A stretch of DNA of 64,000 nt from Candidatus Latescibacterota bacterium (GTDB lineage Bacteria > Latescibacterota > UBA2968): positions 768,001 through 832,000 of the forward strand of contig OZ241986.1 in assembly GCA_965204375.1 (NCBI GenBank), in the 5' to 3' direction. The position numbers and the translations under genes are program-made. The notes under the pieces are model-generated. The model was given only the letters and a program-made list of their open reading frames with translations. It did not search any database and was not told the DNA's origin. This document shows, one piece after another, positions 1-64,000 of the stretch (within the stretch, counting starts at the first letter, position 1; every line of letters begins with the position of its first letter).

Positions 1-269
1 AGGTTGAGCTTCTCTGCTTGCGCCTTGCATCGGGTGACGTACTCGTCGGCGAGGTCAATAGCCGTGATCTGGTAGCCTCGATTTGCCAGAGGAAAGGAGT
101 AAAATCCCGTGCCGAAACCAATTTCGAGGAGCCTGCCGCGAGGTGGGAGGTATAGGTTCAAATAGCGCCAGGTGATGTCTGCTTCGAGTTGGTGGCGTTC
201 CAACCTATTTGCCTCTGCGTCCCAGGCAGCATTGTAAAACTCGCGTATGTCGGTCAGGTCGTCCATCAT
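1..269 (-). CDS. Class I SAM-dependent methyltransferase (runs off window edge)
   Basis: Manual translation MMDDLTDIREFYNAAWDAEANRLERHQLE...RLLEIGFGTGFYS contains SAM motif I (LEIGxGxG). Confidence 0.8.
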   Translation of the reverse strand, partial: MMDDLTDIREFYNAAWDAEANRLERHQLEADITWRYLNLYLPPRGRLLEIGFGTGFYSFPLANRGYQITAIDLADEYVTRCKAQAEKLN

Positions 270-306
270 ATTAGAGAATTGGTCTATCTGCCTGTGGTAC
301 TTTTCT

Positions 307-1383
307 TTACCTCGGTTCGTTGGGATATAAATCCCCTACATATTTGTCATACCCGTTGAATAGCAGGGTCGGACGGATTTCGGGGTTCGAAGCATTGGTG
401 GTGATAAATCGTTCCTGAGCTTGAGACCACCGGGGATGGGCGACCTTGGGATTGACATTGGCAAAGAAGCCGTATTCTCTTGGAACGAGCGTATTCCAGA
501 AGGTTCTCGGCTGCTCGCGGACAAACTCAATGCTCACAAGAGATTTGATGCTCTTAAAACCATATTTCCATGGCGCGACCAGACGGATGGGTGCCCCGTG
601 CTGGTTGGGCATTTCGTGACCGTAAATCCCCGTGGCGATAAAAGCGAGTTCATTTACCGCTTCTTCCATCGTCAGCCCTTCAACATAGGGCCAGGGATAG
701 TGGGGGGCGTTGAGCTGACCAGGAGCCTGATTCGGGTCCAGGAAGGTGGTCATCTTGACGAATTTTGCCGTAGAAAGCGGTTGTACCAGGTCTATGAGGG
801 CTTTCATCGGAAAACCGGTCCACGGTATTGCCATAGACCACGCCTCTACACACCGCAAGCGGTAAAGCCGTTCCTCCAGCGGAATAGCGCGAACCAGATC
901 GCCAAAATCGTATGTCTTTTCCTGCGGGACCTCTCCCTTGATTACCACTGTCCAGGGATCTGTCATGAAGTTTTCCGATAGAGGCTTCACCTGAGTCTTA
1001 CCGGTGCTGAATTCATAAAAATTATTGTACGATCCGGCTATTGACTCCTCGGTTAAAGGTCGGTCCAGTTCCTTGAATTCCTCATTGAGGCTGGCAGGAT
1101 AAAGCGGTTGCGGCGGCTGTGGTGGTTGCGGCGGATCCGGCGGTTGCTGTGGCGGTTGCTGTGGATCCTGAGGTTGTTGTGGCTGTTGCGGTTGCTGTGG
1201 TTGTTGTGGCTCCTCAGTCGGCGTAGTGGGTGCTCTTTCAGCAGGGGTAAAAATCTTCTCATGTCCGCAGCCTGCTAACGCTCCCAGGGCACCTCCTGCG
1301 GCTACCATAAACTTTCGCCGGTTCATATAAACATCTTCTGGCGTTGCTTCTCTTTCGGGTATTTCCCAACCTCGTTTTGGCAT
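307..1383 (-). CDS. msrP: Protein-methionine-sulfoxide reductase catalytic subunit (molybdopterin, YedY family)
   Basis: YNNFYEF, RLRCVEAWS, GAPIRLVAPWKYGFKSIKS and HPRWSQA motifs; Tat RRKFM; AAGGAGG RBS before the ATG at 1383. Confidence 0.92.
   Translation of the reverse strand: MPKRGWEIPEREATPEDVYMNRRKFMVAAGGALGALAGCGHEKIFTPAERAPTTPTEEPQQPQQPQQPQQPQDPQQPPQQPPDPPQPPQPPQPLYPASLNEEFKELDRPLTEESIAGSYNNFYEFSTGKTQVKPLSENFMTDPWTVVIKGEVPQEKTYDFGDLVRAIPLEERLYRLRCVEAWSMAIPWTGFPMKALIDLVQPLSTAKFVKMTTFLDPNQAPGQLNAPHYPWPYVEGLTMEEAVNELAFIATGIYGHEMPNQHGAPIRLVAPWKYGFKSIKSLVSIEFVREQPRTFWNTLVPREYGFFANVNPKVAHPRWSQAQERFITTNASNPEIRPTLLFNGYDKYVGDLYPNEPR
1105..1212 (-). repeat. Degenerate 9-12 bp coding tandem repeat (PQQ/PPQ linker) inside msrP
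   Basis: Encodes EEPQQPQQPQQPQQPQDPQQPPQQPPDPPQPPQPPQP. Confidence 0.85.
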
Positions 1384-1409
1384 ATCAACCTCCTTGATGA
1401 GGTCCCGGC

Positions 1410-2261
1410 TCATCTCTTAAATGCTATTCCAAACAAAAACGTATTTCCCGCAGAGGTGTTGCAACCCGCTGCGATACGAATCATATCCACGCTCAGTTCC
1501 ATCCAGTCGGTTAAACGGTAAATCACTCCAGGAGAGATTTTTAAGACACTTTGGTCGCCAATTAATTCAACCTCTCCAACCGGGTTACAAGTTCCAAAGG
1601 TACGGATACCTGAAAGATACCCTTTGAACAGGAACCGGTCCACTGTAATTCCGACCTCCAGGGCATAAAACCATTCATTACTGATGTCTCCTCCGCGGAC
1701 CCGGTAGCCTACCTCCCCAGTTACATAAATCGGAGCGGGGTAAAGAGATTGGCCCAGTAGCAGCCGAATATCTGCATCCATCTTTTTAGAACTCAGGGGA
1801 ACCCGCGTGTTGGGGTCTTCTTCGTACCACAGCGGAATTTTACCCCCTATGGCAATTGATGCGACCACGGGCTGATTGGCCAAAAGCCATCGCAAACGCA
1901 TCTCCATATCGCCAAAACCCCATCGACGCTCCAAAGCTGTTCCCGTAACAACCAGATCGAGATCCCTCAGGGTGCGGGTATCCTGCAGCCGTTTGTAGGG
2001 GACAGAAGATACAAGTGTGAGCCGGTCCAGCAAGCCGTATTCCAGGTAGGTCGAATAATTGAGATCTCTCAGTTCCCCCATATTTGCCTTCTGAATCTGC
2101 TTGCCGTTGGCATCAATATCTATGGTCGAGTTCAAATAGCTGGCTCCGACCTTAAAATAATAGCCCCCCTTTTTCTGAGTCCACGCGCCAGCAAAGGCCG
2201 CAGATGTCAGGCCCAGATAGGTGGTGCATATAGCGAGAAAAAACAGACTTCGATATATCAT
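1410..2261 (-). CDS. Secreted/outer-membrane beta-barrel-like protein
   Basis: Signal peptide ending AFA-GAWTQKKG, alternating beta-strand pattern, C-terminal aromatic residue; start reassigned to the ATG at 2261. Confidence 0.6.
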   Translation of the reverse strand: MIYRSLFFLAICTTYLGLTSAAFAGAWTQKKGGYYFKVGASYLNSTIDIDANGKQIQKANMGELRDLNYSTYLEYGLLDRLTLVSSVPYKRLQDTRTLRDLDLVVTGTALERRWGFGDMEMRLRWLLANQPVVASIAIGGKIPLWYEEDPNTRVPLSSKKMDADIRLLLGQSLYPAPIYVTGEVGYRVRGGDISNEWFYALEVGITVDRFLFKGYLSGIRTFGTCNPVGEVELIGDQSVLKISPGVIYRLTDWMELSVDMIRIAAGCNTSAGNTFLFGIAFKR

Positions 2262-2344
2262 TGATTTACCCCATATTTCGAGAGGTTTTATTGATAGTGC
2301 GGTCAGTATTATAAAGCCTATAATAAATTTAAGTTCCCCTTCCC

Positions 2345-3838
2345 TCATTCCTCTTCGATCACAGCCGTGTGGGCAGTCATCGTCGCACTGGGCGAGAGTC
2401 GTGGCTTCAGGCCGCTGGCAGTCCTCAGGCCCCGAAGCCTTACTCGCTGGCAAGGGGTGTATGGGAAAGGACGTTCCTCAGACGCGGAGGCCTGTTCGAC
2501 GCCATCGTGGAAGTCGTCCGGTGCGGTGAAGAAGTACATGCCTTGGTAATTATCGGGCGTATTGGAATCATCTACGAATAGTCCGTCGATAACGACTTCT
2601 TCGGGCATAGAGCAGGGATATCCGAAATCGTGCATGCCGTCGTTGGCAACATTGATCATGTGAGGTTGACAGATGTCTCCACAGGCCGGAATCCATCGGC
2701 AGTTGCGGATCTCAAGCGCTCCTTCCCAGGTGCTGCCATAGTCGCGCCGAAAGGAGACCAGGCTACTGCCGTACAATGTAGAATCCTCGACTATTAGCCG
2801 GCCTCGGCCGATCGCGTTTAGCCCCATATGCCCCAGGGAGCAGCGACGGATGACGTAGGTGCCCGAAACGCCCATGTGCGTGTCCATCCTGGAGAGGTGG
2901 CAGTCCTCGAGGAGGATGTCCTTGCAGAAGTTGGATCCGATCACGCCCCAGCGCGTGCGGTCGGTGATGTGGTTCATACGACATCCAATCATTGTGAATC
3001 CCACGACATTGTTCGCATTGTAGTCGTAGGTGCCCATGCTGACCGGTTTACCCGCCGCGCCGATGGTCGAGTAGATTTTGTGCCCGGTGGCGAAGCAGTT
3101 GCGCAGCGTGATGTGGGCACACTGTTGCGCGCTAATGAATCCGGAATAGGGGCAGCCCACGGCTGTCTCGCCGACGACATAGTGGGTTAGACCCGCGACT
3201 TCCGTGTTCGAGCGAGAGATTACAATGTTCCGATTCCAGTAGTTGTAACCTTGCGGATGGTGCTCGCGGTTGGCAAACGTGGTAAAGACACCGCCGCGTA
3301 GGTAGAGCGTCTGCTCGTCGATCGGCCTCGCCTCTACTCGGGTGATCAGATCGTATTCCCAATCGATGTCCGCCTCCACCGAGCCGTCTCGACGCAGGAC
3401 GAAGCAGTCGTGCTGGGGAACGCCGTCGTTCTGGTTGAGTCCCCGCCGGATATACTGCCTCTTGTGCGCGTTTTCCACGAGGACGTGACAGTCGCGCTCT
3501 GGTCGCGCATCCACCTGTCTCTGGTCTCTCGTGAGCCGATCGATCTGCAGTTCCTCTGGCTCCAACAGCGAGCGTACTTCAAAGAGATGCGCCTTGTGGT
3601 CTTCAACCTGTGTGTCTTCAACCGTGAAACGGGAGGTGTTCCAGTCGGTATTGGTTGCGACCACGGCGGTCAGTGCCTGGCCGCCGAGATGGTACGTCGC
3701 GTCGGGCTTTGTCCTGACACTCAGGCCGTGCGCGTTGGCGTAGGCGTGTGCCTCGCAGATCGCTGGCATGTCATCCGTGACGCCGTCGCCCTTTGCACCG
3801 AAAGCCTCGTAGTCTATCAGGCCCTCTTTGAAATCCAT
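2345..3838 (-). CDS. Pectin-lyase-like right-handed beta-helix protein
   Basis: N-terminal FGAKGDGVTDD motif; AGGAG RBS. Confidence 0.7.
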   Translation of the reverse strand: MDFKEGLIDYEAFGAKGDGVTDDMPAICEAHAYANAHGLSVRTKPDATYHLGGQALTAVVATNTDWNTSRFTVEDTQVEDHKAHLFEVRSLLEPEELQIDRLTRDQRQVDARPERDCHVLVENAHKRQYIRRGLNQNDGVPQHDCFVLRRDGSVEADIDWEYDLITRVEARPIDEQTLYLRGGVFTTFANREHHPQGYNYWNRNIVISRSNTEVAGLTHYVVGETAVGCPYSGFISAQQCAHITLRNCFATGHKIYSTIGAAGKPVSMGTYDYNANNVVGFTMIGCRMNHITDRTRWGVIGSNFCKDILLEDCHLSRMDTHMGVSGTYVIRRCSLGHMGLNAIGRGRLIVEDSTLYGSSLVSFRRDYGSTWEGALEIRNCRWIPACGDICQPHMINVANDGMHDFGYPCSMPEEVVIDGLFVDDSNTPDNYQGMYFFTAPDDFHDGVEQASASEERPFPYTPCQRVRLRGLRTASGLKPRLSPSATMTAHTAVIEEE

Positions 3839-3850
3839 GGGTGTCTCCTT

Positions 3851-4291
3851 TTATCTATCTAACGCGATCTGCTCAATTATTTTGGGACCAAAGCCTTTCA
3901 CAGTAGATAAGTTACCGTTTTCTGCTGCCGACTTCAACCCCGCCAAATCAGCGACGCCAAGTTCGTCGAATACGCGTCTCGCCAATTTTGCGCCCAACCC
4001 GCGAATTTCCGTAAGTTCGAGAATCGTTATGGGAATGTGATCTGGCTGTAGCGCAGTGACTGTACGACCTTCTACGATCTCCTGGATCGTCTGGAGTACC
4101 TCAGTATCAGGTTCATCAAGCAATGTCTTAATGCCTGAATAATCCAGTTTTGGAAGCGCGTCAATTCGTTGGCCGCGCAGTGATTGGACCTCCATGGCTG
4201 TGCCCAGATACTGCCCCGGATTTCGATCACAGATTTCGCGATAATAAGCAACCTGCTTGAGGATTTTCGCGATCGTGTAATTTGATGGCAT
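3851..4291 (-). CDS. Helix-hairpin-helix protein resembling the PolX N-terminal domains
   Basis: NYTIAKILKQVA helix; two HhH motifs IRGLGAKLA and VKGFGPK. Confidence 0.7.
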   Translation of the reverse strand: MPSNYTIAKILKQVAYYREICDRNPGQYLGTAMEVQSLRGQRIDALPKLDYSGIKTLLDEPDTEVLQTIQEIVEGRTVTALQPDHIPITILELTEIRGLGAKLARRVFDELGVADLAGLKSAAENGNLSTVKGFGPKIIEQIALDR

Positions 4292-4304
4292 ACTCTAATG
4301 CTCC

Positions 4305-5273
4305 TTATCGTAGCCAGGTCCACGCAGTTCTGGTTGCTGGATAGGCTATCTCTTCTCCCAAACGCAATTTCTTCACTTCTGGAGATTTAATCGTGCTACG
4401 AACACCCTGAGCATATTGATATATTTCATTGTCCGGATAGGCCGTGCCTGCTCGGCCAGTTGGAGAAAAGCCAAGCCGCTGAAGCTTCTCCATATAAATC
4501 ATCTCTATGCGGCTAACCAGTTCTCGTTTACCATTCATCTTCTCGAATCCCTCCGCAAGTAAAGGAGAAACTTCATCGGCAATAGTGCCCAACTTTCTGA
4601 ATTCTGTCCACAACCATTTGTGGTAGGGTGCATGACGCCGACTCATCAGAAAGCCAACCTTCATTGCGTAATCAGCGAATCTGGCCCAATAGCAACACGC
4701 ACTCACATGGTCTCCCCGAGCCTCCGCCCTGAAGAGTTGCTTTCGTCCCCACTCATAACACCAGGAGAGACAAGCTCCCAGTCGCTGCTTCCATACATCA
4801 TCCGGATATTTGGAGAACGCTCGGAAGCGAGCACTGACGATGCCAGGTCCATCGTGATAAAGCCTGCTCGGGGTCAACTCAAACAGATACGGCTCTGGTA
4901 TTCGCAACCAGTCCACGAGTGATTGAGGCGGATCTGAGAATCCGACCATAGATTCTATATAGCTACTGATTTCCATTACAATACAGGTCCTGACCTCTGA
5001 TTTTTGCCATCGAAATCCGTCATATTCGCGGGGAAGGGTATCCAGTATCTCCTGAAGACGCTCGCCGTGATCATCGAAATCGTCTTTGACAAGCCACACC
5101 ATGAATCCCGGTCCCCAGCCATGGTCGCGAGACACATCATCGTCGTTTTTGTGCGCTTGAGACCCTAAACCAACGCCCACTGCCAGTCTCGGGACACATT
5201 CGGGCAATTGTTGCTCAATAGCAGGTAGCCCAATTTCCTGGAAGAACCGCTCTGATAGTTCAAATCCTTTCAT
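4305..5273 (-). CDS. DUF4037-type nucleotidyltransferase-like protein
   Basis: GLGS...DDDVSRDHGWGPGF and APYHKWL motifs; GGAGG RBS. Confidence 0.75.
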   Translation of the reverse strand: MKGFELSERFFQEIGLPAIEQQLPECVPRLAVGVGLGSQAHKNDDDVSRDHGWGPGFMVWLVKDDFDDHGERLQEILDTLPREYDGFRWQKSEVRTCIVMEISSYIESMVGFSDPPQSLVDWLRIPEPYLFELTPSRLYHDGPGIVSARFRAFSKYPDDVWKQRLGACLSWCYEWGRKQLFRAEARGDHVSACCYWARFADYAMKVGFLMSRRHAPYHKWLWTEFRKLGTIADEVSPLLAEGFEKMNGKRELVSRIEMIYMEKLQRLGFSPTGRAGTAYPDNEIYQYAQGVRSTIKSPEVKKLRLGEEIAYPATRTAWTWLR

Positions 5274-5297
5274 AGAGTCCTCCACTCTATTTGAATA

Positions 5298-5804
5298 CTA
5301 TCTTGGGCCTTTGTATTTGCGTCCACGGTCTGCCACACGGCGCTCTCTGGTTAGCGCCATGATTGGAACCCCATAGCCACAACTCGTTTGTGTTTTTTCA
5401 ATGTTCACTTCAATCACTTGTCGAGGTTTCTTCAATTCTTGAGCAGGCGTTTCGAGCATCTGGCGCACGAGAGGGGAGTCGTCAAGCTCAGCGATCCGCG
5501 CATGTCCATAGAGCCGGACAATGCCCGCGTCCCCTTCCTCGAAGGAGCACACCATGATCGTGATAGGACCTCCAGAGATCGCATGACGCGCTGTCTCGTT
5601 CCCGCTGCCGGGATAGTCGAGGTAAGCAACGCGATTTGGCGTAAGAATATGCAAGGGCGTTCCTCCCTTTGGCGATAAATTTAAAGCACCCGTCCCATCA
5701 GGTCCGTTTTCCAAATTTGGATCGGCTGTCGCGACAAAGAATAGGGGAGCGTTCCTAATGAGCGCAACTTGCTCATCTGTTATAGAAGTGTAGTGCGTTG
5801 CCAT
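5298..5804 (-). CDS. Pyridoxamine 5'-phosphate oxidase family protein
   Basis: FFVATA, NLSPKG, GSGNET and QTSCGYGVP motifs. Confidence 0.85.
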   Translation of the reverse strand: MATHYTSITDEQVALIRNAPLFFVATADPNLENGPDGTGALNLSPKGGTPLHILTPNRVAYLDYPGSGNETARHAISGGPITIMVCSFEEGDAGIVRLYGHARIAELDDSPLVRQMLETPAQELKKPRQVIEVNIEKTQTSCGYGVPIMALTRERRVADRGRKYKGPR

Positions 5805-5897
5805 TTCGTTTATGTCTCCTTTTAGCGGCGGTATTTGGCTAACTCAGTTTTGACCTTATGGAACCGGTTTAGTTCCTTTGTGTAAATGAACGCACGC

Positions 5898-6122
5898 TTA
5901 TAAGTCTTCTATATTGAGAGGTTTTGTCCGCCCTGCTCTATGTGCTGCAATGGCCTCATCGGCCAACCGCTCCAGTAAATCCTCGGACTCAGGGCGGCTA
6001 AACAACTCAGCCCATCGCTGATCCGACTCAAGTTCGGCCAGCAGGAAACGCGCAAATTGATCCTGCTTCTCCTGTGGGAGTTTGGTGGCTCTCTCAAAAG
6101 CCTTTTGAAGAAGTGGGGTCAT
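5898..6122 (-). CDS. Small antitoxin-like protein (orphan)
   Basis: MTPLLQKAFERATKLPQEKQDQFA...LADEAIAAHRAG pattern, typical of antitoxins preceding RelE/ParE-like toxins. Confidence 0.65.
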   Translation of the reverse strand: MTPLLQKAFERATKLPQEKQDQFARFLLAELESDQRWAELFSRPESEDLLERLADEAIAAHRAGRTKPLNIEDL

Positions 6123-6156
6123 TTGTTTTCTTCCTTTAAAATTTCAACTGAAATGC

Positions 6157-6891
6157 TCACACGTCATGTATAATCCACACATTGGGTTCTTCGTGATAGC
6201 CAACGTTGTTTTCGCGGTCGATTGAGACAAGTGCCAATGCTCTTGGAACGACGTATTCACCCGATGTTGGGAAAGACATGTCCGTCCATTTCTCCCAATC
6301 ATTGACTGTACCTCGGACAGACATCGATTTCGGTGCCGTCCGTGCAATCCGACCTCCAATTTTCCAATGTACCCGGATCCACGGATCAAAGGGCTGTCCA
6401 TCCTCTCGTTTCCACGCTATGTAATCGTCAATTGCTGTGAGCGGATATCTGTCCTTGAACGTCGGTCGTACCGGCGCGATGAGGAATAAGAATCCCTGGC
6501 AGTCGGCAATGTGCTTCATAGCCAGCAAAATTTCCCGGCTGTACCCTTGTCCCTGACAATCCGGCCTGATATCGACTCCCAATGCACAGAGAGTTGTAGG
6601 GTTCTGATTTCCTTCTCTCAAGCCCAATTCCAGCGCTGATGTCCAGCCTTCTGGTAAGTCTTCGTCATGGCCGGTCCACGGGATGGGGATTGCGATACTA
6701 TAGGCAGCCAGTTGATCCTCAGAATCGCAATAATATAGTTGAAACTGGGGAAACTGCGCGATCAATTGAGCTGTTATCTCCTTGGGCCCCTCGGCATGAA
6801 AGATGAACTCGGGCCAGTTCGTTCGGGAATCCCATGTTTGCTCTCGCAGATCGGGTCGCTCGGTATGCGAATACACGGTCAACTTTTTCAC
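6157..6891 (-). CDS. GNAT family N-acetyltransferase
   Basis: QGQGYS acetyl-CoA motif, APVRP, DPWIRVH. Confidence 0.8.
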   Translation of the reverse strand: MKKLTVYSHTERPDLREQTWDSRTNWPEFIFHAEGPKEITAQLIAQFPQFQLYYCDSEDQLAAYSIAIPIPWTGHDEDLPEGWTSALELGLREGNQNPTTLCALGVDIRPDCQGQGYSREILLAMKHIADCQGFLFLIAPVRPTFKDRYPLTAIDDYIAWKREDGQPFDPWIRVHWKIGGRIARTAPKSMSVRGTVNDWEKWTDMSFPTSGEYVVPRALALVSIDRENNVGYHEEPNVWIIHDV

Positions 6892-6910
6892 GGTATTTTT
6901 GTACTTCCTT

Positions 6911-7759
6911 CTAATTGATTCTATGCCGGGAGGTTCTATTGATAGCGTCAGCTAGCAATTGGAATCCCCCGTTACGTTTATAGGTGCTTAGCCAATCTCC
7001 GCTCACAAATTCAAAATTGCCGGTCTCCGTATCAAGCGCACCAATACATCCTTCGTTTATAACCTGCAATGTTGGATCTCTGGGGTTGCTCACCACACTG
7101 GCGACCTGAATGCACTCCGTCTCATACACTTTTCTCGGCTCGACTGGATGGTGAAAGTGCCCAAATACATGGTAGCGCGGTTTCGATGTTCTCAGATATT
7201 CGAGCAAGCCTTGAGGTCCTTCCGCCAGGTTATCCGCATCGGCACCGGCTCCAAATCCTCCTTCGTGTGAAACGAGAATATCTATATCCTTTGGGTGATT
7301 GTGTTGAAGAGCCTCTGGGTCTCCACCTTCACAAAAGCCGATTGTTTCCTCTCCTACCTCAAGTGTAAAACCGTCCGGTACGCACTTGAAGAGATCGTGT
7401 GGGTCAAGTGGAATGGGTACAGAAGATTTTGTCTCTACAGAATTTCGAATAGCAGAGAATTCGTCGTGATTGCCTGCTACCACAAGGATCGAAGATGTCA
7501 ATTGCGCCCGTGTATCGCGTGCTAATTGTGCATCTGTCCCTTCTGCCAGGATGAGGCTACACAAATCGTACACGGCCGGATCCCATTGTGAAAACCTGTC
7601 GTATGGGATCTCACCGCTCTGCGGCAGTGGCATAACCCCCAGATCGCCAACCTGAACGACAAGGTCGAATCTCTTTTTTCGTATTGACTGCCAGATCAGG
7701 AGAATGGCAAGGGCATGGCAGGCGCGTCCGTGTATATCACCTATGAACCCTATAATCAA
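6911..7759 (-). CDS. Metallophosphoesterase
   Basis: GDIHG, GDLG, GNHD, SHE and GHFH motifs. Confidence 0.88.
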   Translation of the reverse strand: MIIGFIGDIHGRACHALAILLIWQSIRKKRFDLVVQVGDLGVMPLPQSGEIPYDRFSQWDPAVYDLCSLILAEGTDAQLARDTRAQLTSSILVVAGNHDEFSAIRNSVETKSSVPIPLDPHDLFKCVPDGFTLEVGEETIGFCEGGDPEALQHNHPKDIDILVSHEGGFGAGADADNLAEGPQGLLEYLRTSKPRYHVFGHFHHPVEPRKVYETECIQVASVVSNPRDPTLQVINEGCIGALDTETGNFEFVSGDWLSTYKRNGGFQLLADAINRTSRHRIN

Positions 7760-7760
7760 T

Positions 7761-8369
7761 TTAAGTTCCTTCTACCAAATGGTCCCTTCTTCTGTCGTCT
7801 GGCGTTTCCGCTTTTCTCGAATCTTGAGCTTTGTTTATTCGAAATCCAAGTTGCGTGATTTTGCCATCACCAAAATCGTTGTCTTCAACGTTGTCGAGTT
7901 CGGGAGCTCGAAAGAAGCCGACTTTTGTAAAAAGATTGATGCTTGGCTGATTGTGTTCGTATATCCCGGCCACGATATATTCGAGGTCGAATTCTCTGAA
8001 GATAAAGTCCACTGAGAGTTGCACGGCTTCTGTTCCGTATCCCTTAAATCTAAAAGGCTTATAGATCCAGACGCCCAGATCTGGTTCAAGGTGTGCCGGA
8101 GCCAGACTGATACGACCAACGGGAATTAGATCCTTCAAACGAACAATGGTGGCATTGAACCGTTGTGGAGGTCTGTCCGGGTTGGTAAATAGTGCAAGAA
8201 AATCTTCGTAGGATTCCCAATAGTGCATCGTATTGAAGTTTCTTTGCGTTGAGATATCCTTCCACGTTTGGTAGAACGGCTTATAATCCTCCATCAGGAA
8301 CTCAGTGAGGCCAACGTCTCTTCCTTTGATATAGAAGTTCCGGCAGTCTTTGACGTTGTCAATAGTCAT
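7761..8369 (-). CDS. RimJ/RimL-type GNAT acetyltransferase
   Basis: KGYGTEA and NQPSINLFTKVGF motifs. Confidence 0.82.
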   Translation of the reverse strand: MTIDNVKDCRNFYIKGRDVGLTEFLMEDYKPFYQTWKDISTQRNFNTMHYWESYEDFLALFTNPDRPPQRFNATIVRLKDLIPVGRISLAPAHLEPDLGVWIYKPFRFKGYGTEAVQLSVDFIFREFDLEYIVAGIYEHNQPSINLFTKVGFFRAPELDNVEDNDFGDGKITQLGFRINKAQDSRKAETPDDRRRDHLVEGT

Positions 8370-8378
8370 CAGGATGCT

Positions 8379-9746: not shown

Positions 9747-9777
9747 TTGGTTACCTTTGAATAGTTATCAGAGTGTT

Positions 9778-51339: not shown

Positions 51340-51377
51340 ACCGCGACAGCCGGAATTGCCATCGCCATCGTTGCGTT

Positions 51378-54065: not shown

Positions 54066-54099
54066 TGCATTGTGTCCAGGTTTTTAGAGATTTAGTTCT

Positions 54100-55080: not shown

Positions 55081-55104
55081 TTTCGATCTCCTTTAATAAA
55101 TCGC

Positions 55105-56712
55105 CTAAATTTCATCGTCATCCAGAGCGCGCTGTCCTTCAAACGGTCCCCATTGAATACGCCCTCTGGTTCTTCTATCGCTCTTGTAAATCTCCGGGTC
55201 ATAATTCGGGTTTTCCTTGGGGAATCGCGCTCCGACCAGTTCGAGATAGCGCATCATTTCGTCGTAGAGTTTCCGATGTATTTCCGGATTTTGCTTTGCA
55301 ATATTGGTAACCTCGCCAATGTCGCCAGAAAGGTCGAACAACATCGGAATATCCGGTCGTTCGTAAAAATGGATCACCTTGGACGAACCAGAAATAATGA
55401 CCGAATGCGGCACAGAGTTCCGATAATGAGGATAATGGAAATAGAGATAGCGATTCAGAAAGGCTTCGTCAGGCTCTTCTCCAGCCATGTAATCCGCGAG
55501 GCTGACACCGTCGATATTCTGCAATTTTTCCGAGTCGCCACCAGCCCAATCAACGAAGGTGGGTAAGAAATCATAGTTGATCACATTGCCGGTAAAAGCT
55601 GAGTTAGGTTTGATCCCGGGCCCCTTGACAATCATAGGCACCCGGATGCCTCCATCCCACAACCACCACTTTGTTGCGTGTAACGGTTGCTTGTAGTCGG
55701 GTATGATTTCGACTTCTTCGTGTCGGTAGCCGTTGTCACCCACTACGATGACATAGGTGTTATCCGCAATTCCCAGTTCTTCTAATTTGTCGAGCACCGC
55801 GCCGATCCGACCATCCAGATCCTCACCCATGCCCAACCAAATTGCGGGATCATCTCCCCGATTGACTGTGTCGGGATGTTTATTGTTTTTCTTATACCAC
55901 TCCTGCACCAGTGGGTGATTCACATATTTTTCACGCGTTTTATCCAGGCATTCATAACCCGCATGCATGGCGTAATGAGAGATCTGAAGGTAAAAGGGAT
56001 TGCTTTTTTCTACCTGTTCTTCCATGAAGCCAATTGCCTTTTCGGTAATGCTGAACATCAACTTGGGATCGGCCATATCTTTGGGTAGTCGTCTGGGCGT
56101 CCGCTCGCCTCTCTCCAGGCCGTACTTCAGGGTATTGCCGGGATTATTATCGGTAGCACCATCGTGTAATATGTAGCCTGCCTTTGCAGGATCGCCCCTC
56201 ATGTGCCATTTGCCAATGTGGGCGCTGACATAACCCAGTGGCTTGAGCGCTCTGGGAATGGTAACTGCGTCTTCGTCGAGTTCTCGGTCGGACACGTTCG
56301 GGACCAGTGGGAAACTCTGATATTCCCTTTTCGTGTCGTAGTAAGGCTCTCTTGCCCCCAGATATACCGTGAAACCACTGTGTGGAGCAGACTGCCCCGT
56401 CTGTACGCACACACGAGCAGGTGCACATTGGGGTGCTCCATAGGCATTGCGAAATTTCATGCCCTCATTTGCCAGCTTTTGGATGTTCGGCATTTGCAAG
56501 ACCGGCATCAGGGAGTTCTCCATGGTGTCATCCATGGCAACCGGTGATCCGTTCCAGGCCCAGTCGTCTATATAAAACATGACAATGTTGGGCCTGGATT
56601 GTGCGTTAGACCCCGCTTGTGTGTTGGATTTGGCCTGTGCAGCCTGACTGCGAACGGCGAAGGTCCCAATCACAATCGCAACCCATAGGATGAGTTTGAT
56701 AAAAAGGATCAT
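55105..56712 (-). CDS. Secreted sulfatase (Cys-type)
   Basis: Signal peptide; CAPAR, GKWH, DNG, GGIRVP. Confidence 0.9.
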
Positions 56713-56731
56713 ATATTCCTCCTGTTGGACA

Positions 56732-59545
56732 TCAGTTGTTGCTTCTCCAGATAATTTTTCTTTTTTTCCCTTCGACCTCGCAAAATACGGCCAGTCTTCT
56801 GGATACAGTGATTCCGAGTTTATAAGTACCGGGGTCGGACACCTTTCTGGATTTCCAAAGTTCCACTTCCGGATGGTCGGGCGTACCGCGATAGGTCACC
56901 AACTGTCCCTTTTCGAAAGCGGCATAATGAAGACCGCCGTCGGGGTCCTTCGACCGGGATCGCCAAATCGCGTCTCCACTCCTGCCAGGAGCACCTCGAC
57001 GTAGCACCAGCTTTCCATTATCATGCATCTTCAAATAGCATTCCAGGCGGGGGAATACGCGGACATCTCCGATCATCAACCGCTCGCCTTCGTTCAGTAT
57101 TACTTGATGAATCTCATCCCGCCAGCCTGTCGCACTATTTTTCGACACATCACCCACGGCAATCTGAATTTCACTCCGATTGAATATACCGGTTTTGTCT
57201 TCTGCCACAGCTTCCAAATGATATATCCCAGGCTTCAGTGCTTTCAGAAGTTCATCGCTTGAATCGCTCCAAACCTGCGGTTGGGTTGCAGTGAGAATCA
57301 GGCCGTTAAGATAAAGCTTCACTTCCCGAATGCCATCTCCATCGGTCGCATCTACTTCTACCTGGAGATCAGTTTCCGCCGGAAAACGCGCACCATCCTT
57401 CAGGTTTGTAAAACGCACTTTTGGAAAGTCCCCTTCCCGCTGTACGGTGATGACCTCTTTTTCCACTTCCGCCAGAGTGCGGTTCCAGTCCATAAAGTGG
57501 GTCCGGGCCATCAATTGCGTTTTGTATTGGGGTGTAAGAATCGAGGCATACGTCTTCCACTCATCCACTGCGTCCTTAAAATGGGCCACGGCTTCATCAT
57601 TAAACTGTTTCCGCTGGCGATCCTCGCGAAATATCGCCAGTTTGGCTGCACCGCGCATTTTGTCGGCATAATAACGGCCGAGATAGGCCATGCTTTCAAT
57701 ATCGTTCAGCGTTTCCTGCAACTCCACATTATCGCCCATCTGTGCCCGCAATGCTGGAAGCGCTTTTAGTGCAGTCGCCGCATATTCATCCAGGTGATTC
57801 GCCACCTGCAACGGTGTGATGCCCTTCAGTTTTTTTCCGGCAAGAAAAGCCTTTGCCCACTCTGTTACGGAGTGAATACCCGATCCACGCATCGGGTCCC
57901 GATCAAAATGGTAATCATCCACGGTCAGAAAACCCTGGCGCTGCATACACCCTTCCGGCGCGAAGTTTCCATCGGTGCCAGACCAGACGGATCTGTTGAG
58001 TTGCGGAATAATCTCGGAAGTTGACTCCCATGCATCGTAAAGGAGCCTGGCATCTACATCGGGAAAACGATGCTTCAGGACCGCTTCCCAATAGTCTCGA
58101 TTGAGTGACGGATTATAAGATAGCTGTCCCCATAGCCGAAATCGATACCAGTGCTTATCAATCTCCAACCGCCTGGACATCTCTGGATTCCTGGCGATAA
58201 ACTCGCGGCCCCACACATAGCCGTCAGAGCCCATATAAAAGCCGGGCGAATGGTCGTGTGGCATTTCTTTAATAAACTCGCGCACATAATCTGGGCTGCC
58301 CCAACGATGCATGAAAATATCGTCATTGCGCAAGTTGAGCCAGACTTTGAAATTATCCAGCCAGCCATCATTTACAATGCGTCTTTCCCATTCCTGCGGC
58401 CTTCTCATCGAATAGATGTGAGCGACCGCATACTTGACACTGGTTTCCAATATGCCCGTATAATTTTTAAAGGCATCTGTAACGTAGTGATGGTCTGTTA
58501 CGTGTCTGCGAAAAATAAAACGAATTTTGCGATCGGGCTGTTGTTCTTGCACGTCCATAATGCCTCGACCGTAGGTGTTGAAGATAAAGTTTTCTATCGA
58601 ATGCACGCCTTTAATTTCATTATCCGCGTTTTCGCCAGCCGTGACGCCAATCCCCGCAATCTGCGGGTAGGTCAGCAATGCCTGGCGCACACTCTTTCGC
58701 ATATAATCGACAGTGACGGGGTTGGTCTGGTCCTGCGTAATACCGTGTTTTCCGGTTGCGCCAAAAGTGAAGACGTTCCAGTGAAACAGATAAATTTCAA
58801 TCCCGCGATCCTCCGCGTATTGGAACACCCGTTGCCAATGCGCGATTTTCTCTTCGATAGTGATCTTTTTGACCAGCTTCAGGGTGCCCGGTTTGTCAAA
58901 ATCCACATCCTGCCACTTGTTTTTATTGTTCGGATAAATATCGACGCCGATGCGATAGATATCGTCCAGCGCGACTTCGGGATACTCTTCCAGCTTAATA
59001 ATGGAAGGAAAGGGATGGGTCGTCCACAGGCTCAGCACATTGTAGCGATAGCGCGCAAGGTCATCGAGATAGGCTTTCCAGAATTCAAAGTCCCAGACTG
59101 TTTCGATATTGTTCTGTGCCGAATCTCCCGTGTCGTCGTAGGATGGGGTGCGCGCATCCAGGGGGATATTAAATTTAATCCCACGCTTTTTCACAAAGGG
59201 TGCGCGTTCCTGATTCTCAATCGGAAGACCGAGGCGCAAAAGGTCGGCTACTTCGAGACCGCCATACATTGCGCCCGTTGCATCTGTACCAGTAATCCGT
59301 ATCCGGGATCCAACAGTCCGAATTTGAAATGCTTCGGGTAATGTCTCATCCGGCTTAATGGTCAACGAAACCTGAAGGTCCTCCCGTCCCACCTCTTTTA
59401 ATACATCGTTTAGTTCCTGCGCCGCAAATACCAACTGCGGGATCTTTGTATCATATTCGACCGAAGCCGCGAGGCGACCCGGCAGAAGAATGCTCAAAAC
59501 GAATAACAAATAGAGAAATGAACGAGGTCTCTTTTTCATTGTCAC
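56732..59545 (-). CDS. Large secreted glycoside-hydrolase-like protein with Ig-like and possible lectin C-terminal domains
   Basis: Signal peptide; [20 protein letters not shown]; Ig-like [15 protein letters not shown]. Confidence 0.6.
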
Positions 59546-59551
59546 AATCCT

Positions 59552-60838
59552 CTAATCTTCGAAATAGCCATCATTCAATTCATCAATATTATTCCGCAAT
59601 TTTTGGAACGCTTCGAGAATGAGGTCCATGTTTTCGCGCGGTCCGAGAAGAATGCGGTGCGTGAGATCAAGGGCTTCGGTTTCGTGAATGCGCTCGGCTT
59701 CGGGACAATAGACTCTGGTATAGTCGATGGGATCAGCCTGGTACAACGGGCAGCGGATTGGACAGCCTGTTTCGCCCCATTTGCCGCTGGCAAACATGCT
59801 AAATTGATAGAGGGGCTTTGTCGGGCCAATACCACAGGGCACGCCTTCGGCCTGGAGCGCTTTGCGGAATCGTTCGCGGTGGATGCCTTCAAATTCTTCG
59901 GAGATGAATTTGAAGTGCCAGCGATAGGGGTTCCAGCGGGTGACGCGCTCGTCAATGTCGAGGCCAGTGAGTCCGGGAATAGATTCCATTCCTTTGTGGA
60001 GATACTTGAGATTTTTCCACCGGATTTCTGCCTGTTCTTCGAGGCGGGTGAGTGCGATCAGGCCGATGGCCGCTTCAAATTCGCCCAGTCTTAGAGTTGT
60101 GGCAGGCCAGGTGAAGTTCAGGCTTTCTTCGCCTCTGTCTCGGCCTGCGTGATGATACCGAAAGGCTTTTTCGTACAGGCTTTCGTCTTTGGTCATCACC
60201 ACGCCGCCTTCGCCTATGGCGAGTACTTTGCCGGGCATGCAGGAGAAACCAGCGATGTCGGCGTGAGAACCCACGCCTTTGCCTCTCCATTGCCCGCCGT
60301 GCGCATGAGAACAGTCGCTGACCAGGCCGATATTGTGTTTGTGGCAGATGTCACTTAAAGCATCTGTATCGCAGGGCATGCCCCCCATATCTACGGCAAC
60401 CACTGCCCGGGTGCGCGGCGTGATGAGGGCTTCTACGCTTTTGGGGTCGATGGTGTAGTTGCGCGGGTCGATGTCGGCAAAGATGGGAATGCCATTGCAA
60501 ATCATGACGCAGGAAGCAGACGCAATATAAGTTGATGCAGGGACAATGACTTCACAGCCAGCTTCGACGCCGAGGGATCGCAAGCAGGTTTCGAGTGCTG
60601 TGGTGCCTGTGGAGACAGCAAGGGCGTATTTGCTGTCGTGAAATTCTGCAAAAGCCTGTTCGAATGCGTAGAGTTTGCTGTCGCCATGGTTGTAATAGTC
60701 AAAGCCACTGCGCCCCCATTTGTGACTGCGAAGGACGCCGACAACAGCTTTTTCTTCGCGTTCATCGTGAACCGGCCAGGGTTGGCGCAGGTCTTTGGTA
60801 ACCGTTTTTGAACCACCGTTGATTGCGAGTTCAGGCAT
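59552..60838 (-). CDS. DegT/DnrJ/EryC1/StrS aminotransferase
   Basis: LAINGG, GTTAL, DCSHAHG, FS...K....GEGG; start reassigned to the ATG at 60838. Confidence 0.9.
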   Translation of the reverse strand: MPELAINGGSKTVTKDLRQPWPVHDEREEKAVVGVLRSHKWGRSGFDYYNHGDSKLYAFEQAFAEFHDSKYALAVSTGTTALETCLRSLGVEAGCEVIVPASTYIASASCVMICNGIPIFADIDPRNYTIDPKSVEALITPRTRAVVAVDMGGMPCDTDALSDICHKHNIGLVSDCSHAHGGQWRGKGVGSHADIAGFSCMPGKVLAIGEGGVVMTKDESLYEKAFRYHHAGRDRGEESLNFTWPATTLRLGEFEAAIGLIALTRLEEQAEIRWKNLKYLHKGMESIPGLTGLDIDERVTRWNPYRWHFKFISEEFEGIHRERFRKALQAEGVPCGIGPTKPLYQFSMFASGKWGETGCPIRCPLYQADPIDYTRVYCPEAERIHETEALDLTHRILLGPRENMDLILEAFQKLRNNIDELNDGYFED

Positions 60839-62075
60839 TGAAGTGCTCCTGATGGGATGAATTATCGTGCAGTTTTGTGAGTAAGGTTTGTGTTTCGTCA
60901 ATCCAGCGTTCACCTGTGCCGGGAACAACGCAAGCGCGGTTGTATTCGAGTGGGTCACTTGGATAGGGGGTAACGCCGTAGCCACCGAAATTATACGCGC
61001 GGCGATTTGGTACATAGCCACATGAACCCTGGGAATAGCCCATGACAATCGTGCGTGCAAAGGGGGATGACGATTGGGTGGATAGGGATAGCTCGATGAA
61101 GGGTTCACCCTGCCAGAAGACGAGTGCCAGGTCGTCGCTTATGCGGATGGCGGGGATTTCGATTCGGATGTTTTTTTCGTTTGTGTATCGGTTGGGAAGC
61201 GTATCTTGCCAGCGCTCTACTTTAAGTGAAAGATTTTTTTCTGGCGTTGCTTGTGTCCAGGCAACGATGGCTTCTCTGGCGAGCGCTTTGCCCATTTCTT
61301 CGACCGTATCATAATTGTCTCTGGGTTCCTGAATCGGAAGTATGTTGCCACATGCCCCTTGTAGAAATATTGAGAAGGGTACAGATGTGCCTGCTTCAAA
61401 GTGGCGACGGGTTGCGCCGGGATATTCGGCGGTGAAGAGACGATTGGCGGTCATCATGATGACGGGATGAGCGGCAAAGTGGATTGCGGTCGCGATGGGT
61501 TGGCCATTGGGTGTGTCGAATCGCAGGACAGTGACTGCGGGGTCAACAGGGCCGTTGGGCAGTTTTTCGGGATTGAGGTTAAACGATTTAAAGCTTCCGT
61601 CGGGCAATATCTGGCGTCTGTTGTAGGCGAGGTCGGTGTTGACAGAGCCCGTTGAGAGTGTGGCGGGTTTAAAATTGGTTATAGACTCGACAGCAGCATC
61701 GACAACCTGCTTTCTTATGTGAACAATCGCATCATCTTCGGGGCTTCCGCCAAAGTAATAGATGCATTCTGGGCCACTGTGATTGTGGGTGCTACACAGG
61801 ATCAGGTTTTCGAGCGGAAGATCGGATTGTGCGGCAAAAGCATCGCGCATGGCATCGACGTCGATCCACTGAAAGCTCAGGAGATCTGCCGAGCAAATGA
61901 CGATAGTGGTCGTATCGTCAGATAGTGCCAGCGCTTTGACGTATAATGGGTCATGGATACCTTCTGCAATGCGAGGTTGCATGGGCGAGCGGTTTACGGG
62001 AAAAGCACCCATAGCCGATCCTGTAGATGGCGTGATGTCTCGTTGTGCAGTACCAATTTTTATTATATCTGCCAA
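60831..62075 (-). CDS. Neutral/alkaline ceramidase-like N-terminal domain protein
   Basis: DITP, HDPLYVKALAL, THNHSGP, NRR, FAAHP, QGACGN, GEPF. Confidence 0.78.
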   Translation of the reverse strand: MADIIKIGTAQRDITPSTGSAMGAFPVNRSPMQPRIAEGIHDPLYVKALALSDDTTTIVICSADLLSFQWIDVDAMRDAFAAQSDLPLENLILCSTHNHSGPECIYYFGGSPEDDAIVHIRKQVVDAAVESITNFKPATLSTGSVNTDLAYNRRQILPDGSFKSFNLNPEKLPNGPVDPAVTVLRFDTPNGQPIATAIHFAAHPVIMMTANRLFTAEYPGATRRHFEAGTSVPFSIFLQGACGNILPIQEPRDNYDTVEEMGKALAREAIVAWTQATPEKNLSLKVERWQDTLPNRYTNEKNIRIEIPAIRISDDLALVFWQGEPFIELSLSTQSSSPFARTIVMGYSQGSCGYVPNRRAYNFGGYGVTPYPSDPLEYNRACVVPGTGERWIDETQTLLTKLHDNSSHQEHFNA

Positions 62076-62156
62076 AGCTCAGATCTCCTATTTTGAATGT
62101 TCAAGAAATCCACACTGTTTTGTATTCGAACCATCTTCCTTCTGTTGAAACGCTAC

Positions 62157-63566
62157 TTAAAGCGTCATCGCATTCCACGGTTGTGTCGGATAATCCACCC
62201 ACTGTTTTGATCCGCGCTCAAACGCCCACCGATACTCAGCGATTGCGCCTGCTTGTAGTTCTGCAATTCGCGGTGAATGTGCCGGGTCATTTGCCAAATT
62301 CACAAACTCATACGGGTCTTCAGCAATGTGATAAAGCTCTGGTCCATAAGGTCCATGAATATATTTCCACTCCTGCGTGCGAATGCTCAGGCTCAAATCT
62401 CGCGGATACTGTAACTCCGTAATCGCCACCTTCCGTTCACGTTCACGACCTTCAACCAGCGCCTTCAAACTCATGCCGGGTAAATGCACGGGAATATCCA
62501 TTCCCGCAAAATCGAATGCTGTAGGTAGTACGTCCAATAGATTCACAAGTGAATCGCTCACAAAACCCGTTTGAAATCTCTTTGGCGGTTTCACAATGAA
62601 TGGGATGCGAATGGCCTGTTCGTAGAGATTGTATTTCGAAAATGCGGTCACGCCTCGCGATCCCAACAGTTCACCGTGGTCAGAAAGAAAAATGATCAGC
62701 GTGTCATCGTACAATCCATTGCGATCCAGGGCGTTTATCACTTGCTGATGGCATCGGTCGCAGGCCGTGACAAAAGCCATGTAATTTGCAATCGCATCTC
62801 GTAGTTCTTCTCGCTCTAATCCGACAAAATTGGGATAGGCATTCCGATCGGGTAAATTATCCGGCGGTTCAGGTGGTAATACAACGTCAGCAGGGTCGTA
62901 TAAATCTGCCAAATTAGCTGGTGTTACATGAGGTGCATGAGGCCCTGACAAACTGCAAATCATGAAAAACGGATTGTCCTTGTTTTCTTCCACAAAGGCA
63001 GCAGCCCGTTCTCCAACCCACCAGTCGCGCGTTTGCTCTAACCTCAAGCTGGTCGTAAATCCCTTAAATGCCGCCGCACAATTGTCTCCGCCCTGACCAA
63101 TCCCACGCGTTTCCCGCTCGCCCATCCCCATCTCTACCCAATCCCGATGTTCCGCCACAAAATGGCTGTCCATACGCTCGCCCGTCTCGTGAAACGGTCC
63201 TGCCCGATGATCAAATCCGTAATAGTTGTCGCGTTTAATAGCCGCCTGATACGGTATTGTATGCATCTTGCCAAAGGCACCCGTTACAAAACCCGCCTGC
63301 CCAAACGCCTTTCCCATTGTCCACTCGGGGATTTGTGCAGGATCCAGTAAATGCCGATTGGAATAAATCCCTGACTGAAATGCATATCGCCCGTGCAACA
63401 TCGAATGGCGACTCGGCAAACACGGGGATACGGCACACGTTGCCTGCGTAAACCGAATGCCCTCCTGAGCCAAACGATCATACGCTGGCGTCTGCAACTC
63501 CGGATAACCCGCACATCCGAGAAAGGCATGCGCGTGTTGATCGTTCATTAAAACCACAACATTCAT
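62157..63566 (-). CDS. Sulfatase (Cys-type)
   Basis: CLPSR, GKMH, PHAP, SDHG; AGGAGG RBS. Confidence 0.9.
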   Translation of the reverse strand: MNVVVLMNDQHAHAFLGCAGYPELQTPAYDRLAQEGIRFTQATCAVSPCLPSRHSMLHGRYAFQSGIYSNRHLLDPAQIPEWTMGKAFGQAGFVTGAFGKMHTIPYQAAIKRDNYYGFDHRAGPFHETGERMDSHFVAEHRDWVEMGMGERETRGIGQGGDNCAAAFKGFTTSLRLEQTRDWWVGERAAAFVEENKDNPFFMICSLSGPHAPHVTPANLADLYDPADVVLPPEPPDNLPDRNAYPNFVGLEREELRDAIANYMAFVTACDRCHQQVINALDRNGLYDDTLIIFLSDHGELLGSRGVTAFSKYNLYEQAIRIPFIVKPPKRFQTGFVSDSLVNLLDVLPTAFDFAGMDIPVHLPGMSLKALVEGRERERKVAITELQYPRDLSLSIRTQEWKYIHGPYGPELYHIAEDPYEFVNLANDPAHSPRIAELQAGAIAEYRWAFERGSKQWVDYPTQPWNAMTL

Positions 63567-63591
63567 AACCATCCTCCTGAAAGTCGAGCGA

Positions 63592-64000
63592 TCAGTAAAT
63601 ATATCGTACCCGCCTGAACTCACCGAGCATCGGGTCCTTTACGCGTTCCATGTGATCTTGCATATATTGCATCAGCGATTCCTGCAACGCCTTGTGTGTC
63701 TCGAGACCGAAGAGGTTGTGCAGTTCGTGCGGATCGTTTTTGAGATCATAGAGTTCTCCGATATCCGATTGATTAAACACAAACTTGTGTGTCCTGGTGC
63801 GCACCATACGAGACTTGTGCTCCTGAATCTGACCGTTGAACTGACAATACACGCTGTCACGTCCCGTCGGTTCATCCTCTCCCATCAACAGCGAAAGAAT
63901 GCTCTGCGTGTCGGGTACAATATCGGGTTGCAGACCTGCGACTTCCAAAAAACTCGGAAACAGATCCTGTAGATAGACAAATTCGTCGTTCTCCCGGCCC
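63592..64000 (-). CDS. Sulfatase C-terminal part (starts outside window)
   Basis: DLFPSFLEVAG, RMVRT, ELYDLKNDPHELHNL. Confidence 0.82.
   Translation of the reverse strand, partial: GRENDEFVYLQDLFPSFLEVAGLQPDIVPDTQSILSLLMGEDEPTGRDSVYCQFNGQIQEHKSRMVRTRTHKFVFNQSDIGELYDLKNDPHELHNLFGLETHKALQESLMQYMQDHMERVKDPMLGEFRRVRYIY

Follow-up and report, generated by a model that had tools for sequence, protein, structure and literature searches.

The stretch analyzed here, 64,000 nt long and hereafter called the window, lies at G000:C1:768001-832000 of a Candidatus Latescibacterota chromosome assembled as a single contig of 6.34 Mb with a G + C content of 50.8% (genome G000). This genome is a metagenome-assembled genome (MAG) with an estimated contamination of 5.5%; the chromosome is sponge- and coral-associated, and the public runs in which the stretch was found are sponge and coral metagenomes. 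The window carries an array of co-oriented, functionally unrelated genes. Comparison with related genomes demonstrated that two sub-arrays of small, promoter-poor accessory genes within it change structure much faster than the rest of the genome.

The gene list, compiled from open reading frames (ORFs) and Pfam matches, comprised 66 genes, with 60 on the minus strand and six on the plus strand. An earlier note on this DNA, made from the letters alone, had counted about 60 of about 65 on the minus strand and had described most spacers as shorter than 40 bp. Both observations hold: 33 of the 55 minus–minus junctions measured 40 nt or less (11 overlapping or abutting and 22 at 1–40 nt), 14 measured 41–100 nt, and eight exceeded 100 nt, with a median spacer of 25 nt. 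The strand bias of the window was the strongest in the genome (99th percentile against same-sized gene windows of G000), and co-oriented runs of 20–29 ORFs were common elsewhere in G000. According to the crude ORF list, the co-oriented run around the window extends over approximately 95 kb (748.6–843.4 kb of G000), and it occupies the same chromosomal place in all same-genus genomes examined. With dnaA at 4.67 Mb and the cumulative GC skew reaching its minimum near 5.15 Mb and its maximum near 1.65 Mb, the plus strand should be the leading strand at the window, yet the array genes are on the minus strand, and the local skew was approximately 0; transcription of the run appears to meet replication head-on.

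The window divides into two hypervariable sub-arrays, A and B, each followed by a stable block (Table 1). Pfam analysis agreed with the unrelated cargo listed in the earlier note, which included GNAT, methyltransferase, VOC, AAC(3), APH, and NUDIX genes and two DUF pairs. Sub-array A contained three GNATs, AAC(3), APH, methyltransferases, VOC, HAD, PNPOx, a metallophosphoesterase, a histidine phosphatase, PhyH, two beta-lactamase-fold genes, and one insertion sequence (IS). The PhyH gene is a real plus-strand gene, where small minus-strand ORFs had been proposed before. The cargo of sub-array B comprised HAD, methyltransferases, MFS, BNR, a sulfatase, a 2H phosphoesterase, NUDIX, DUF4838, GNAT, and DUF2441, with plus-strand genes at 42085–44000 and 49814–51339. 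One of the four sulfatases of the first stable block is on the plus strand (27301–28677). The second stable block encoded sulfatases, a PLP decarboxylase, PhyH, a 937-aa protein, a DegT aminotransferase, and a ceramidase-like gene. Approximately eleven sulfatases were found by Pfam in the whole window, alongside the PSD/DUF1552 pair.

Promoter-like sites were about as numerous as chance predicts in both sub-arrays (23 observed, 21.9 expected; 15 observed, 12.8 expected) under a sigma-70-type consensus that may not fit this phylum; terminator-like sites were also at chance level, and both scans were uninformative on transcription units. Within the scanned parts, the strongest match to a promoter consensus lies upstream of the stable PSD/DUF1552 block. 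The differences in GC content to which the earlier note had drawn attention were real, with G + C contents at third codon positions (GC3) of 0.72 and 0.71 in the GC-rich pair of genes it had named and 0.38 and 0.35 in the AT-rich pair, but the per-gene check revealed that they are not distinctive. The GC3 spread of the window reached only the 72nd percentile of the genome and its neighbour-to-neighbour GC3 differences the 94th; composition is therefore no mark of the array, and GC heterogeneity was rejected as a distinguishing mark of foreign origin.

Table 1. Features of the window, with positions counted from its first nucleotide.
Feature	Position	Strand	Basis and details
Hypervariable sub-array A	1..25029	-	~33 small unrelated genes; Pfam; 9-17 blast blocks per relative
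NUDIX stub	5825..5863	-	Last 13 codons of 142-aa gene; blastx, 13/13 identical to residues 130-142 of G010/G016 ORFs
DUF4258/DUF2283 pair, toxin-antitoxin-like	10678..11204	-	Pfam
PhyH dioxygenase gene in sub-array A	11778..12629	+	Pfam, E 6e-29; ORF conserved in 4 relatives, omega 0.25
Deletion junction	14601..14609	-	8-9-nt repeat CAGAAGAC flanks extra DNA of 2.3 kb in G010 and 1.2 kb in G016
Beta-lactamase-fold gene split by IS	16117..19190	-	C-terminal part 16117-17288, N-terminal part 19027 to ~19190
IS element with DDE_Tnp_1_4 transposase (17580-18938)	17289..19027	-	Pfam, E 1e-150
Both ends (~13 and 15 codons) of a plus-strand gene, body deleted	23432..23515	+	272-277 aa in G002/G004, 188 aa in G010
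DUF4160/DUF2442 pair, toxin-antitoxin-like	24510..25029	-	Pfam
Stable block	25146..35073	-	Four sulfatases, hypothetical gene, PSD/PSCyt protein, DUF1552; Pfam
Best promoter-like site	35043..35072	-	TTGACA, 18 nt, TG, TATATT; consensus match only
Hypervariable sub-array B	35075..51377	-	6-17 blast blocks per relative
Pectate-lyase-like gene, 513-nt in-frame internal deletion	36667..37365	-	232 aa, against 404-415 aa in relatives
Composite spacer, three stubs	38655..38808	-	Comparison with G016 and G008 genes, Pfam
185-nt direct duplication, copy 1	42222..42406	+	Self-blast; copy 2 at 49650-49833, 91.4% identity
Methyltransferase clipped at 3' end, 136 aa	44013..44423	-	Orthologue 266 aa in G002, G008, G010, G016
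Composite spacer	47056..47209	-	Residues 234-253 of 309-aa double-GNAT gene, then 3' end (residues 151-181) of 187-aa GNAT gene
5' fragment of P-loop kinase gene	47740..48003	-	Intact, 190-196 aa, in G010 and G016; 5' 200 nt kept
Stub, first 16 codons of 309-aa GNAT gene of G010	48016..48063	-	blastx
60-nt dispersed repeat	48721..48781		G000 copies at 1,022,079 and 1,039,479
Stable block	51378..64000	-	One 12.6-kb block in G010
Sulfatases starting at profile residue 2-5	25149-26414, 28688-29983, 29999-31246, 39949-41397, 51378-52580		Pfam

The genus set consisted of 21 genomes. When the first 20 kb of the window were used as a DNA query, the same genes were found in 18 same-genus genomes at 88–96% identity, in gene-sized blocks and roughly in the window's order. 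Over the full window, blast comparison was performed with the syntenic regions of five same-genus genomes (G002, G004, G008, G010, and G016), which measured 53–95 kb against 64 kb in G000 and carried the window's modules at 88–97% identity in roughly the same order. The matches fell into 9–17 blocks per relative in 1–25 kb and 6–17 in 35.1–51.4 kb, whereas two control regions elsewhere in the genome gave 2–5 blocks per 20 kb and the left flank 3–6. In G008 and G010, 25146–35073 aligned as a single block of 9.9 kb (92% identity), and in G016 it lay within an 11.5-kb block; an extra segment interrupted it in G002, and in G004 part of it was reordered. Likewise, 51378–63999 formed one to three blocks per relative, and whole-gene indels in this part were confined to 54125–55073 (absent from G008) and approximately 56.6/56.7–59.5 kb (absent from G002, G008, and G016).

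Orientation was kept in all 170 of the 170 blast blocks. The sister genome G002 had no block outside the colinear chain and differed from G000 by indels only; seven such blocks were found in G004, four in G008, five in G010, and ten in G016. One 500-nt module occupied differing array positions in different genomes. Aligning relatives, which the earlier note had proposed as a check, thus showed that genes vary singly between species, being present, absent, duplicated, or reordered.

Module borders coincided with gene borders far more often than expected. Unique block ends lay within 25 nt of a gene end in 73 of 101 cases (random expectation, 8%) and within 10 nt in 51 of 101 (3.7%). Among 80 block ends on the 5′ side, 42 fell 0–30 nt upstream of the start codon and three in the first 30 nt of the ORF, and 14 of 76 ends on the 3′ side cut into the last 4–30 nt of the ORF. 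Inspection by eye of 16 module ends revealed neither a common core nor a GTT core. We read the 5′/3′ asymmetry, the scatter of the ends over 30 nt, and the missing common core as a signature of selection on random events, not of cutting at a specific site.

The relatives carried 14–38 kb of extra DNA that the window does not match. Of 92 such segments, 88 had no match anywhere in G000. In G016, 12.9 kb of contiguous extra DNA was shared, piece by piece, with 14 other genomes of the genus. The window itself had 2,625 of its 64,000 bases without a counterpart in the five relatives, and 1,732 of these belonged to the IS. Crude clustering of ORFs over the six genomes gave 174 clusters, 28 of them present in all six.

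The age of the modules was assessed from their divergence in the five relatives. Length-weighted identity was 91.7–93.4% for modules and 92.1–94.4% for conserved blocks, and synonymous divergence (dS) ranged from 0.09 to 0.44 in both alike. The highest module identity was 97.1%, and no module was near-identical between species. The nonsynonymous-to-synonymous ratio (omega) was 0.02–0.33 for all real genes and 0.9–1.7 for three spurious antisense ORFs. The core-like identity and dS, together with low omega, indicate that the modules are functional genes that diverged along with the genomes, and by these measures no recent transfer between the species is apparent. The platform for capturing foreign genes that the earlier note had considered is accordingly not supported for this genome, given how few bases are unmatched, the core-like divergence of the modules, and the lack of near-identical ones. 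A protein search with APH, which reaches close relatives only and is silent on distant donors, returned four genus relatives and G008, in which the gene is reduced to a 108-nt stub.

Remnants of larger genes were preserved in several spacers and shortened genes (Table 1). Five spacers had been read in the earlier note as gene fragments. That at 5822–5895 contains the end of a gene assigned to NUDIX by Pfam, of which the missing 408 nt are present in G010 and G016, and that at 23430–23466 stems from both ends of a plus-strand gene whose halves are 490–750 nt apart in relatives. In the spacer 48010–48135, the GNAT stub was confirmed and the remainder was not. No coding match was found for 42043–42162 or for 14544–14612, the latter being a deletion junction with an 8–9-nt repeat. 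All three genes described as clipped, at 44013, 47740, and 36667, proved to have longer orthologues in relatives. The Pfam match of the clipped methyltransferase covers profile positions 1–81 of 97, and the AAA_33 match of the kinase fragment covers positions 1–42 of 143. The deletion junction of the pectate-lyase-like gene is at 36941–36949, and in relatives a 9-nt direct repeat, GATCGTCGG, borders the missing segment. In the spacer at 38655–38808, the 3′ terminus of a 319-aa APH-like gene of G016 is joined to part of an 87-aa ORF of G008 and to an interior portion of a 283-aa gene, again of G016; the source genes are 8 kb apart in G016. The stub at 48016–48063 and the first piece of the spacer 47056–47209 derive from the same 309-aa GNAT gene.

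Direct repeats of 2–15 nt bordered the extra DNA at 14 examined junctions, and at 5 of the 14 they were situated in the Shine–Dalgarno or start-codon region. A 1.8-kb extra segment in G010 had 10–11 nt of spacer plus ATG repeated on both sides. These repeats, the stubs and clipped genes, and the extra array DNA of the relatives support the pruning by microhomology deletion that the earlier note had offered as a possibility. Duplications were also found, all in direct orientation: in addition to the 185-nt pair of the window, of which G016 has a single copy joining methyltransferase and LamG modules, G016 contained duplicates of 702 nt (96.6% identity) and 543 nt (95.4%) and G008 one of 859 nt (92.3%). 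The IS has eight further copies in G000 at 97–100% identity and an empty site in all five relatives, and intact orthologues of the beta-lactamase-fold gene that it splits are 431–446 aa long in G004, G008, G010, and G016.

The junctions were compared with independent assemblies. Short-read contigs of two samples from one study reproduced 42377–49679 and 35001–38845 with 0 differences; because they are independent, the junctions are not chimeras of the long-read assembly. A coral metagenome contained a relative of 95–99% identity with other junctions (37365 to 45028, 44440 to 47116, and 48202 to 48827) in DNA and RNA libraries, and array variants thus occur beyond the 21 reference genomes. Contigs of the RNA library (X7) covered 29 of 30 bins of 35–52 kb and had three junctions in common with the DNA run of the same sample; as DNA may have been carried over, this is not counted as proof of transcription. 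Parts of 35–52 kb that have no listed contig in X3, X5, or X7 are no evidence of absence.

Based on these results, we propose, with a probability of roughly 0.6, that the array of G000 was pruned from an old and much larger pool of genes common to the genus and was shaped by four processes. Illegitimate deletion between short direct repeats would remove whole genes or leave stubs, and some of these repeats would lie in the similar Shine–Dalgarno or start-codon regions of co-oriented genes. Direct duplication of segments, with different copies lost afterwards, would change gene order without inversion. An IS would occasionally insert. Purifying selection would keep the junctions that spare neighbouring ORFs and translation start regions, and the modules would look ORF-bounded because only junctions with intact ORFs and start regions are retained. 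In this reading, the array does not actively capture genes and undergoes no integron recombination.

Several observations weigh against this proposal. The events are unrooted, there being no outgroup, so that "deletion" and "insertion" are interchangeable at most junctions and the direction given here to most of them is inferred; the gene calls are crude ORF calls; and blast blocks may stop at gene ends partly through faster divergence of spacers. One round of duplication and loss cannot convert the sub-array B order of G016 into that of G000. With spacers of 5–30 nt, clean excision of whole genes by random deletion should be rare, and a mechanism that locates ORF ends may also fit the data. 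When presence and absence were set against the core tree, 21 of 43 informative patterns were compatible and 22 incompatible, so parallel losses or recombination between species are needed, and this test does not tell parallel loss from transfer. Finally, members of an attC-like family occur in the arrays of relatives (two in G016, one in G010, one in G008, and the right half only in G004).

This last observation bears on an alternative origin that we consider unlikely, though not negligible, namely that the array is the fossil of a sedentary chromosomal integron whose integrase was lost or moved and whose non-coding attC sites were removed by the same deletion bias, so that tightly packed, promoterless cassettes in one orientation would be left. 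It concerns origin only and is compatible with present-day deletion and duplication. The array resembles sedentary chromosomal integrons and CALINs, which are clusters of attC sites without an integrase, in its co-oriented, unrelated small genes, its apparent lack of promoters (promoter- and terminator-like sites being at chance level only), its two toxin–antitoxin-like pairs, and its kinds of cargo, which are typical of integrons. To this extent the description "integron-like" in the earlier note holds for the look of the array; the window has none of the parts that define an integron.

The earlier note had seen no intact attC and no integrase, and every search agreed. The best match of G000 to the integron integrase model TIGR02249 scored 88.6 bits against a cut-off of 265, and none of the 21 genus genomes had an integrase above that cut-off. 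The whole of G000 encoded two tyrosine recombinases (PF00589, at 3.37 and 4.26 Mb), one serine recombinase (673 kb), and two reverse transcriptases (1.65 and 3.94 Mb). A recombinase at the array ends had been suggested as a thing to look for; the upstream end of the run (approximately 843 kb) consists of ordinary genes, and none was found nearby. A crude hairpin scan of the window for attC, with R″/R′ cores, gave one candidate, located in the conserved PSD gene, against 0–6 in shuffled sequences. A covariance model (R1) built from the attC-like family of the genus gave no window hits at E values up to 1, and nhmmer with the same family gave only chance matches in the window, within a conserved gene. 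CALINs have two or more attC sites close together; no such pair is present in the window, and the attC-like sites of G000 are isolated and outside it. An attC site is 55–140 nt long, and the median spacer of 25 nt is therefore too short for one. The array thus differs from sedentary chromosomal integrons and CALINs in having no attC in the window, no IntI in the genome, short spacers, and no common core, GTT or other, at its junctions.

The attC-like family was identified in the genus outside the window. G010 and G005 encode an IntI-like tyrosine recombinase, the G010 copy scoring 197 bits on TIGR02249. In G010, this gene is followed by three attC-like repeats of 90–100 nt at 1–2-kb spacing. 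The ends of these repeats pair as TAAC...GTTA, and hairpin folding was seen in two of the three (z = -2.5 and -1.7); the locus, G010:C1:4352001-4372000 (L059) 9700-16960, is approximately 190 kb from the array. G000 retains attC-like sites at 1,004,521–1,004,624 and 1,038,807–1,038,916 (1.00–1.04 Mb), approximately 170–210 kb from the window, with no recombinase there. In favor of the fossil origin, this hairpin family exists in the genus next to an IntI-like gene, its members lie inside arrays of relatives, and G000 has lost one attC-like site with a segment deleted at the junction 37361–37365. On the other hand, the relatives carry only 1–2 attC-like sites per 85–95 kb and approximately 90–107 crude ORFs, and the integron-like locus and the G000 remnants are far from the array.

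Two further alternatives invoke a dedicated process. It is quite unlikely that the sub-arrays are a cassette library kept without an integrase, in which head-on transcription stalls replication forks and templates switch between start regions. If so, ORF-sized units would be deleted, copied, and moved at a high rate in one orientation, and uncultured sponge and coral symbionts would vary their small-molecule-modifying enzymes in an integron-like manner. Very unlikely is a new integrase-independent mechanism by which ORF-sized units are excised, copied, and re-inserted in one orientation, for which template switching at translation-start regions in an array transcribed against the replication fork would be a possible route. 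The ORF-bounded modules, the change of order under strict orientation, the repeated spacer and ATG around the 1.8-kb segment of G010, the 500-nt module with its differing positions, and the apparent lagging-strand position are what it would lead one to expect. However, module ends spread over approximately 30 nt without a common motif, many products (stubs and clipped genes) are imprecise, the 5′/3′ asymmetry fits selection, no candidate enzyme is encoded nearby, and no recent near-identical copies were found. Either a mechanism guided by start regions or a fossil integron, if true, would bear on how cassette arrays rise and decay. That the window is nothing special, being ordinary operons or a mixed-strain artefact, is barely credible, for although some contamination of the MAG is estimated, related strains with other junctions occur in the same metagenomes, and co-oriented runs are common in G000, short-read contigs match 7.3 kb and 3.8 kb exactly, other genomes share the modules and many of the junctions, control regions are 3–5 times less fragmented, and the genes are functionally unrelated.

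Compared with known systems, the array is closest to additive flexible genomic islands, described for Alteromonas as hotspots with varying sets of gene cassettes (PMC4898812). As in those islands, the same locus is used across the taxon, cassettes vary in number and identity and carry accessory "niche" functions, and illegitimate recombination is invoked. No hallmark of site-directed integration (tRNA or tmRNA, integron, or integrase) marks the array; scans of the 64-kb window for tRNA/tmRNA genes and Rfam families found none. Its cassettes are single ORFs with 0–30-nt flanks in strict orientation, unlike the multi-gene blocks of the islands, and they are core-like in divergence, old, and vertically inherited, whereas Alteromonas cassettes are described as nearly identical across species (PMC4898812). 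A further difference is that loss dominates in the G000 array. Our literature search found no paper on such arrays in Latescibacterota or PAUC34f.

In mosaic phage genomes and "morons," module borders fall at gene borders through random illegitimate recombination combined with selection for function. The array shares this coincidence of borders, but it is chromosomal and non-viral, and its modules appear to have no promoter or terminator signals of their own. Tandem duplication followed by random loss (TDRL) has been described for mitochondrial genomes. In the SNAP hypothesis, duplication and then differential loss produce a new gene order (PMC7055797). Duplication and loss may likewise account for the reorderings of the array, which resembles SNAP/TDRL in its reordering without inversion, its direct duplicates (185–859 nt, 91–97% identity), and its remnants of lost copies. 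Unlike the 10–1000-kb regions locked by essential genes in the SNAP account, the pieces here would measure 0.5–5 kb and contain non-essential genes of one island.

These results show that an integron-like appearance does not make an integron: turnover of single genes, uniform orientation, and stubs can come from deletion, duplication, and selection by themselves, which calls for caution in integron-like calls made from sequence. The genus also provides a well-resolved natural series (21 species at approximately 92–95% identity, with many closed chromosomes) in which the rates of microhomology deletion and of duplication and loss, and the signatures that these leave, can be measured in an unculturable lineage. 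Judging from predicted functions and purifying selection, the cargo of acetyl-, phospho-, and methyltransferases, NUDIX, PhyH, and hydrolases may serve as a variable toolkit by which small molecules within the host holobiont are modified.

The 60-nt dispersed repeat of the window was tried as an attC site and rejected, since neither strand gave a hairpin signal (z = -0.14 and 0.18). Copies of 60–86 nt are also present in G010 (L059 4602-4687 and 15961-16046). It sits downstream of differing genes (a methyltransferase in the window; DUF2442 in G008 and G010; in G010 also the IntI-like gene), and short-read contigs of the source samples break at both of its ends.

Other structural variation was observed in the genus. 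The region at 3.80–3.86 Mb of G000, the second most co-oriented of the genome, gave an intermediate count of approximately 8–12 blocks per relative, and the behaviour of the window may recur in milder form elsewhere in the genome, as in this region. The extra segment that splits the first stable block in G002 is 3.3 kb long, is located between window-equivalent positions 27307 and 27318 (L026 5135-7216), and contains tandem repeats with a period of approximately 360 nt and 81–91% identity; it is probably a gene for a repetitive protein. In G016, a 940-nt insertion at window-equivalent 45998/46000 (L018 9371-10310) splits the DUF4838 gene into ORFs of 291 and 351 aa. A repeat of approximately 85–140 nt resembling a miniature inverted-repeat transposable element was found in G000:C1:3000001-3020000 (L037) at 1303-1454, with many copies in G004, G016, and G002 at 80–98% identity.

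Among the eight complete sulfatase genes of the window, the Pfam sulfatase match begins at profile residue 2–5 in five. With this early start and upstream spacers too short for a signal peptide, these five enzymes look cytoplasmic, which is unusual for sulfatases.

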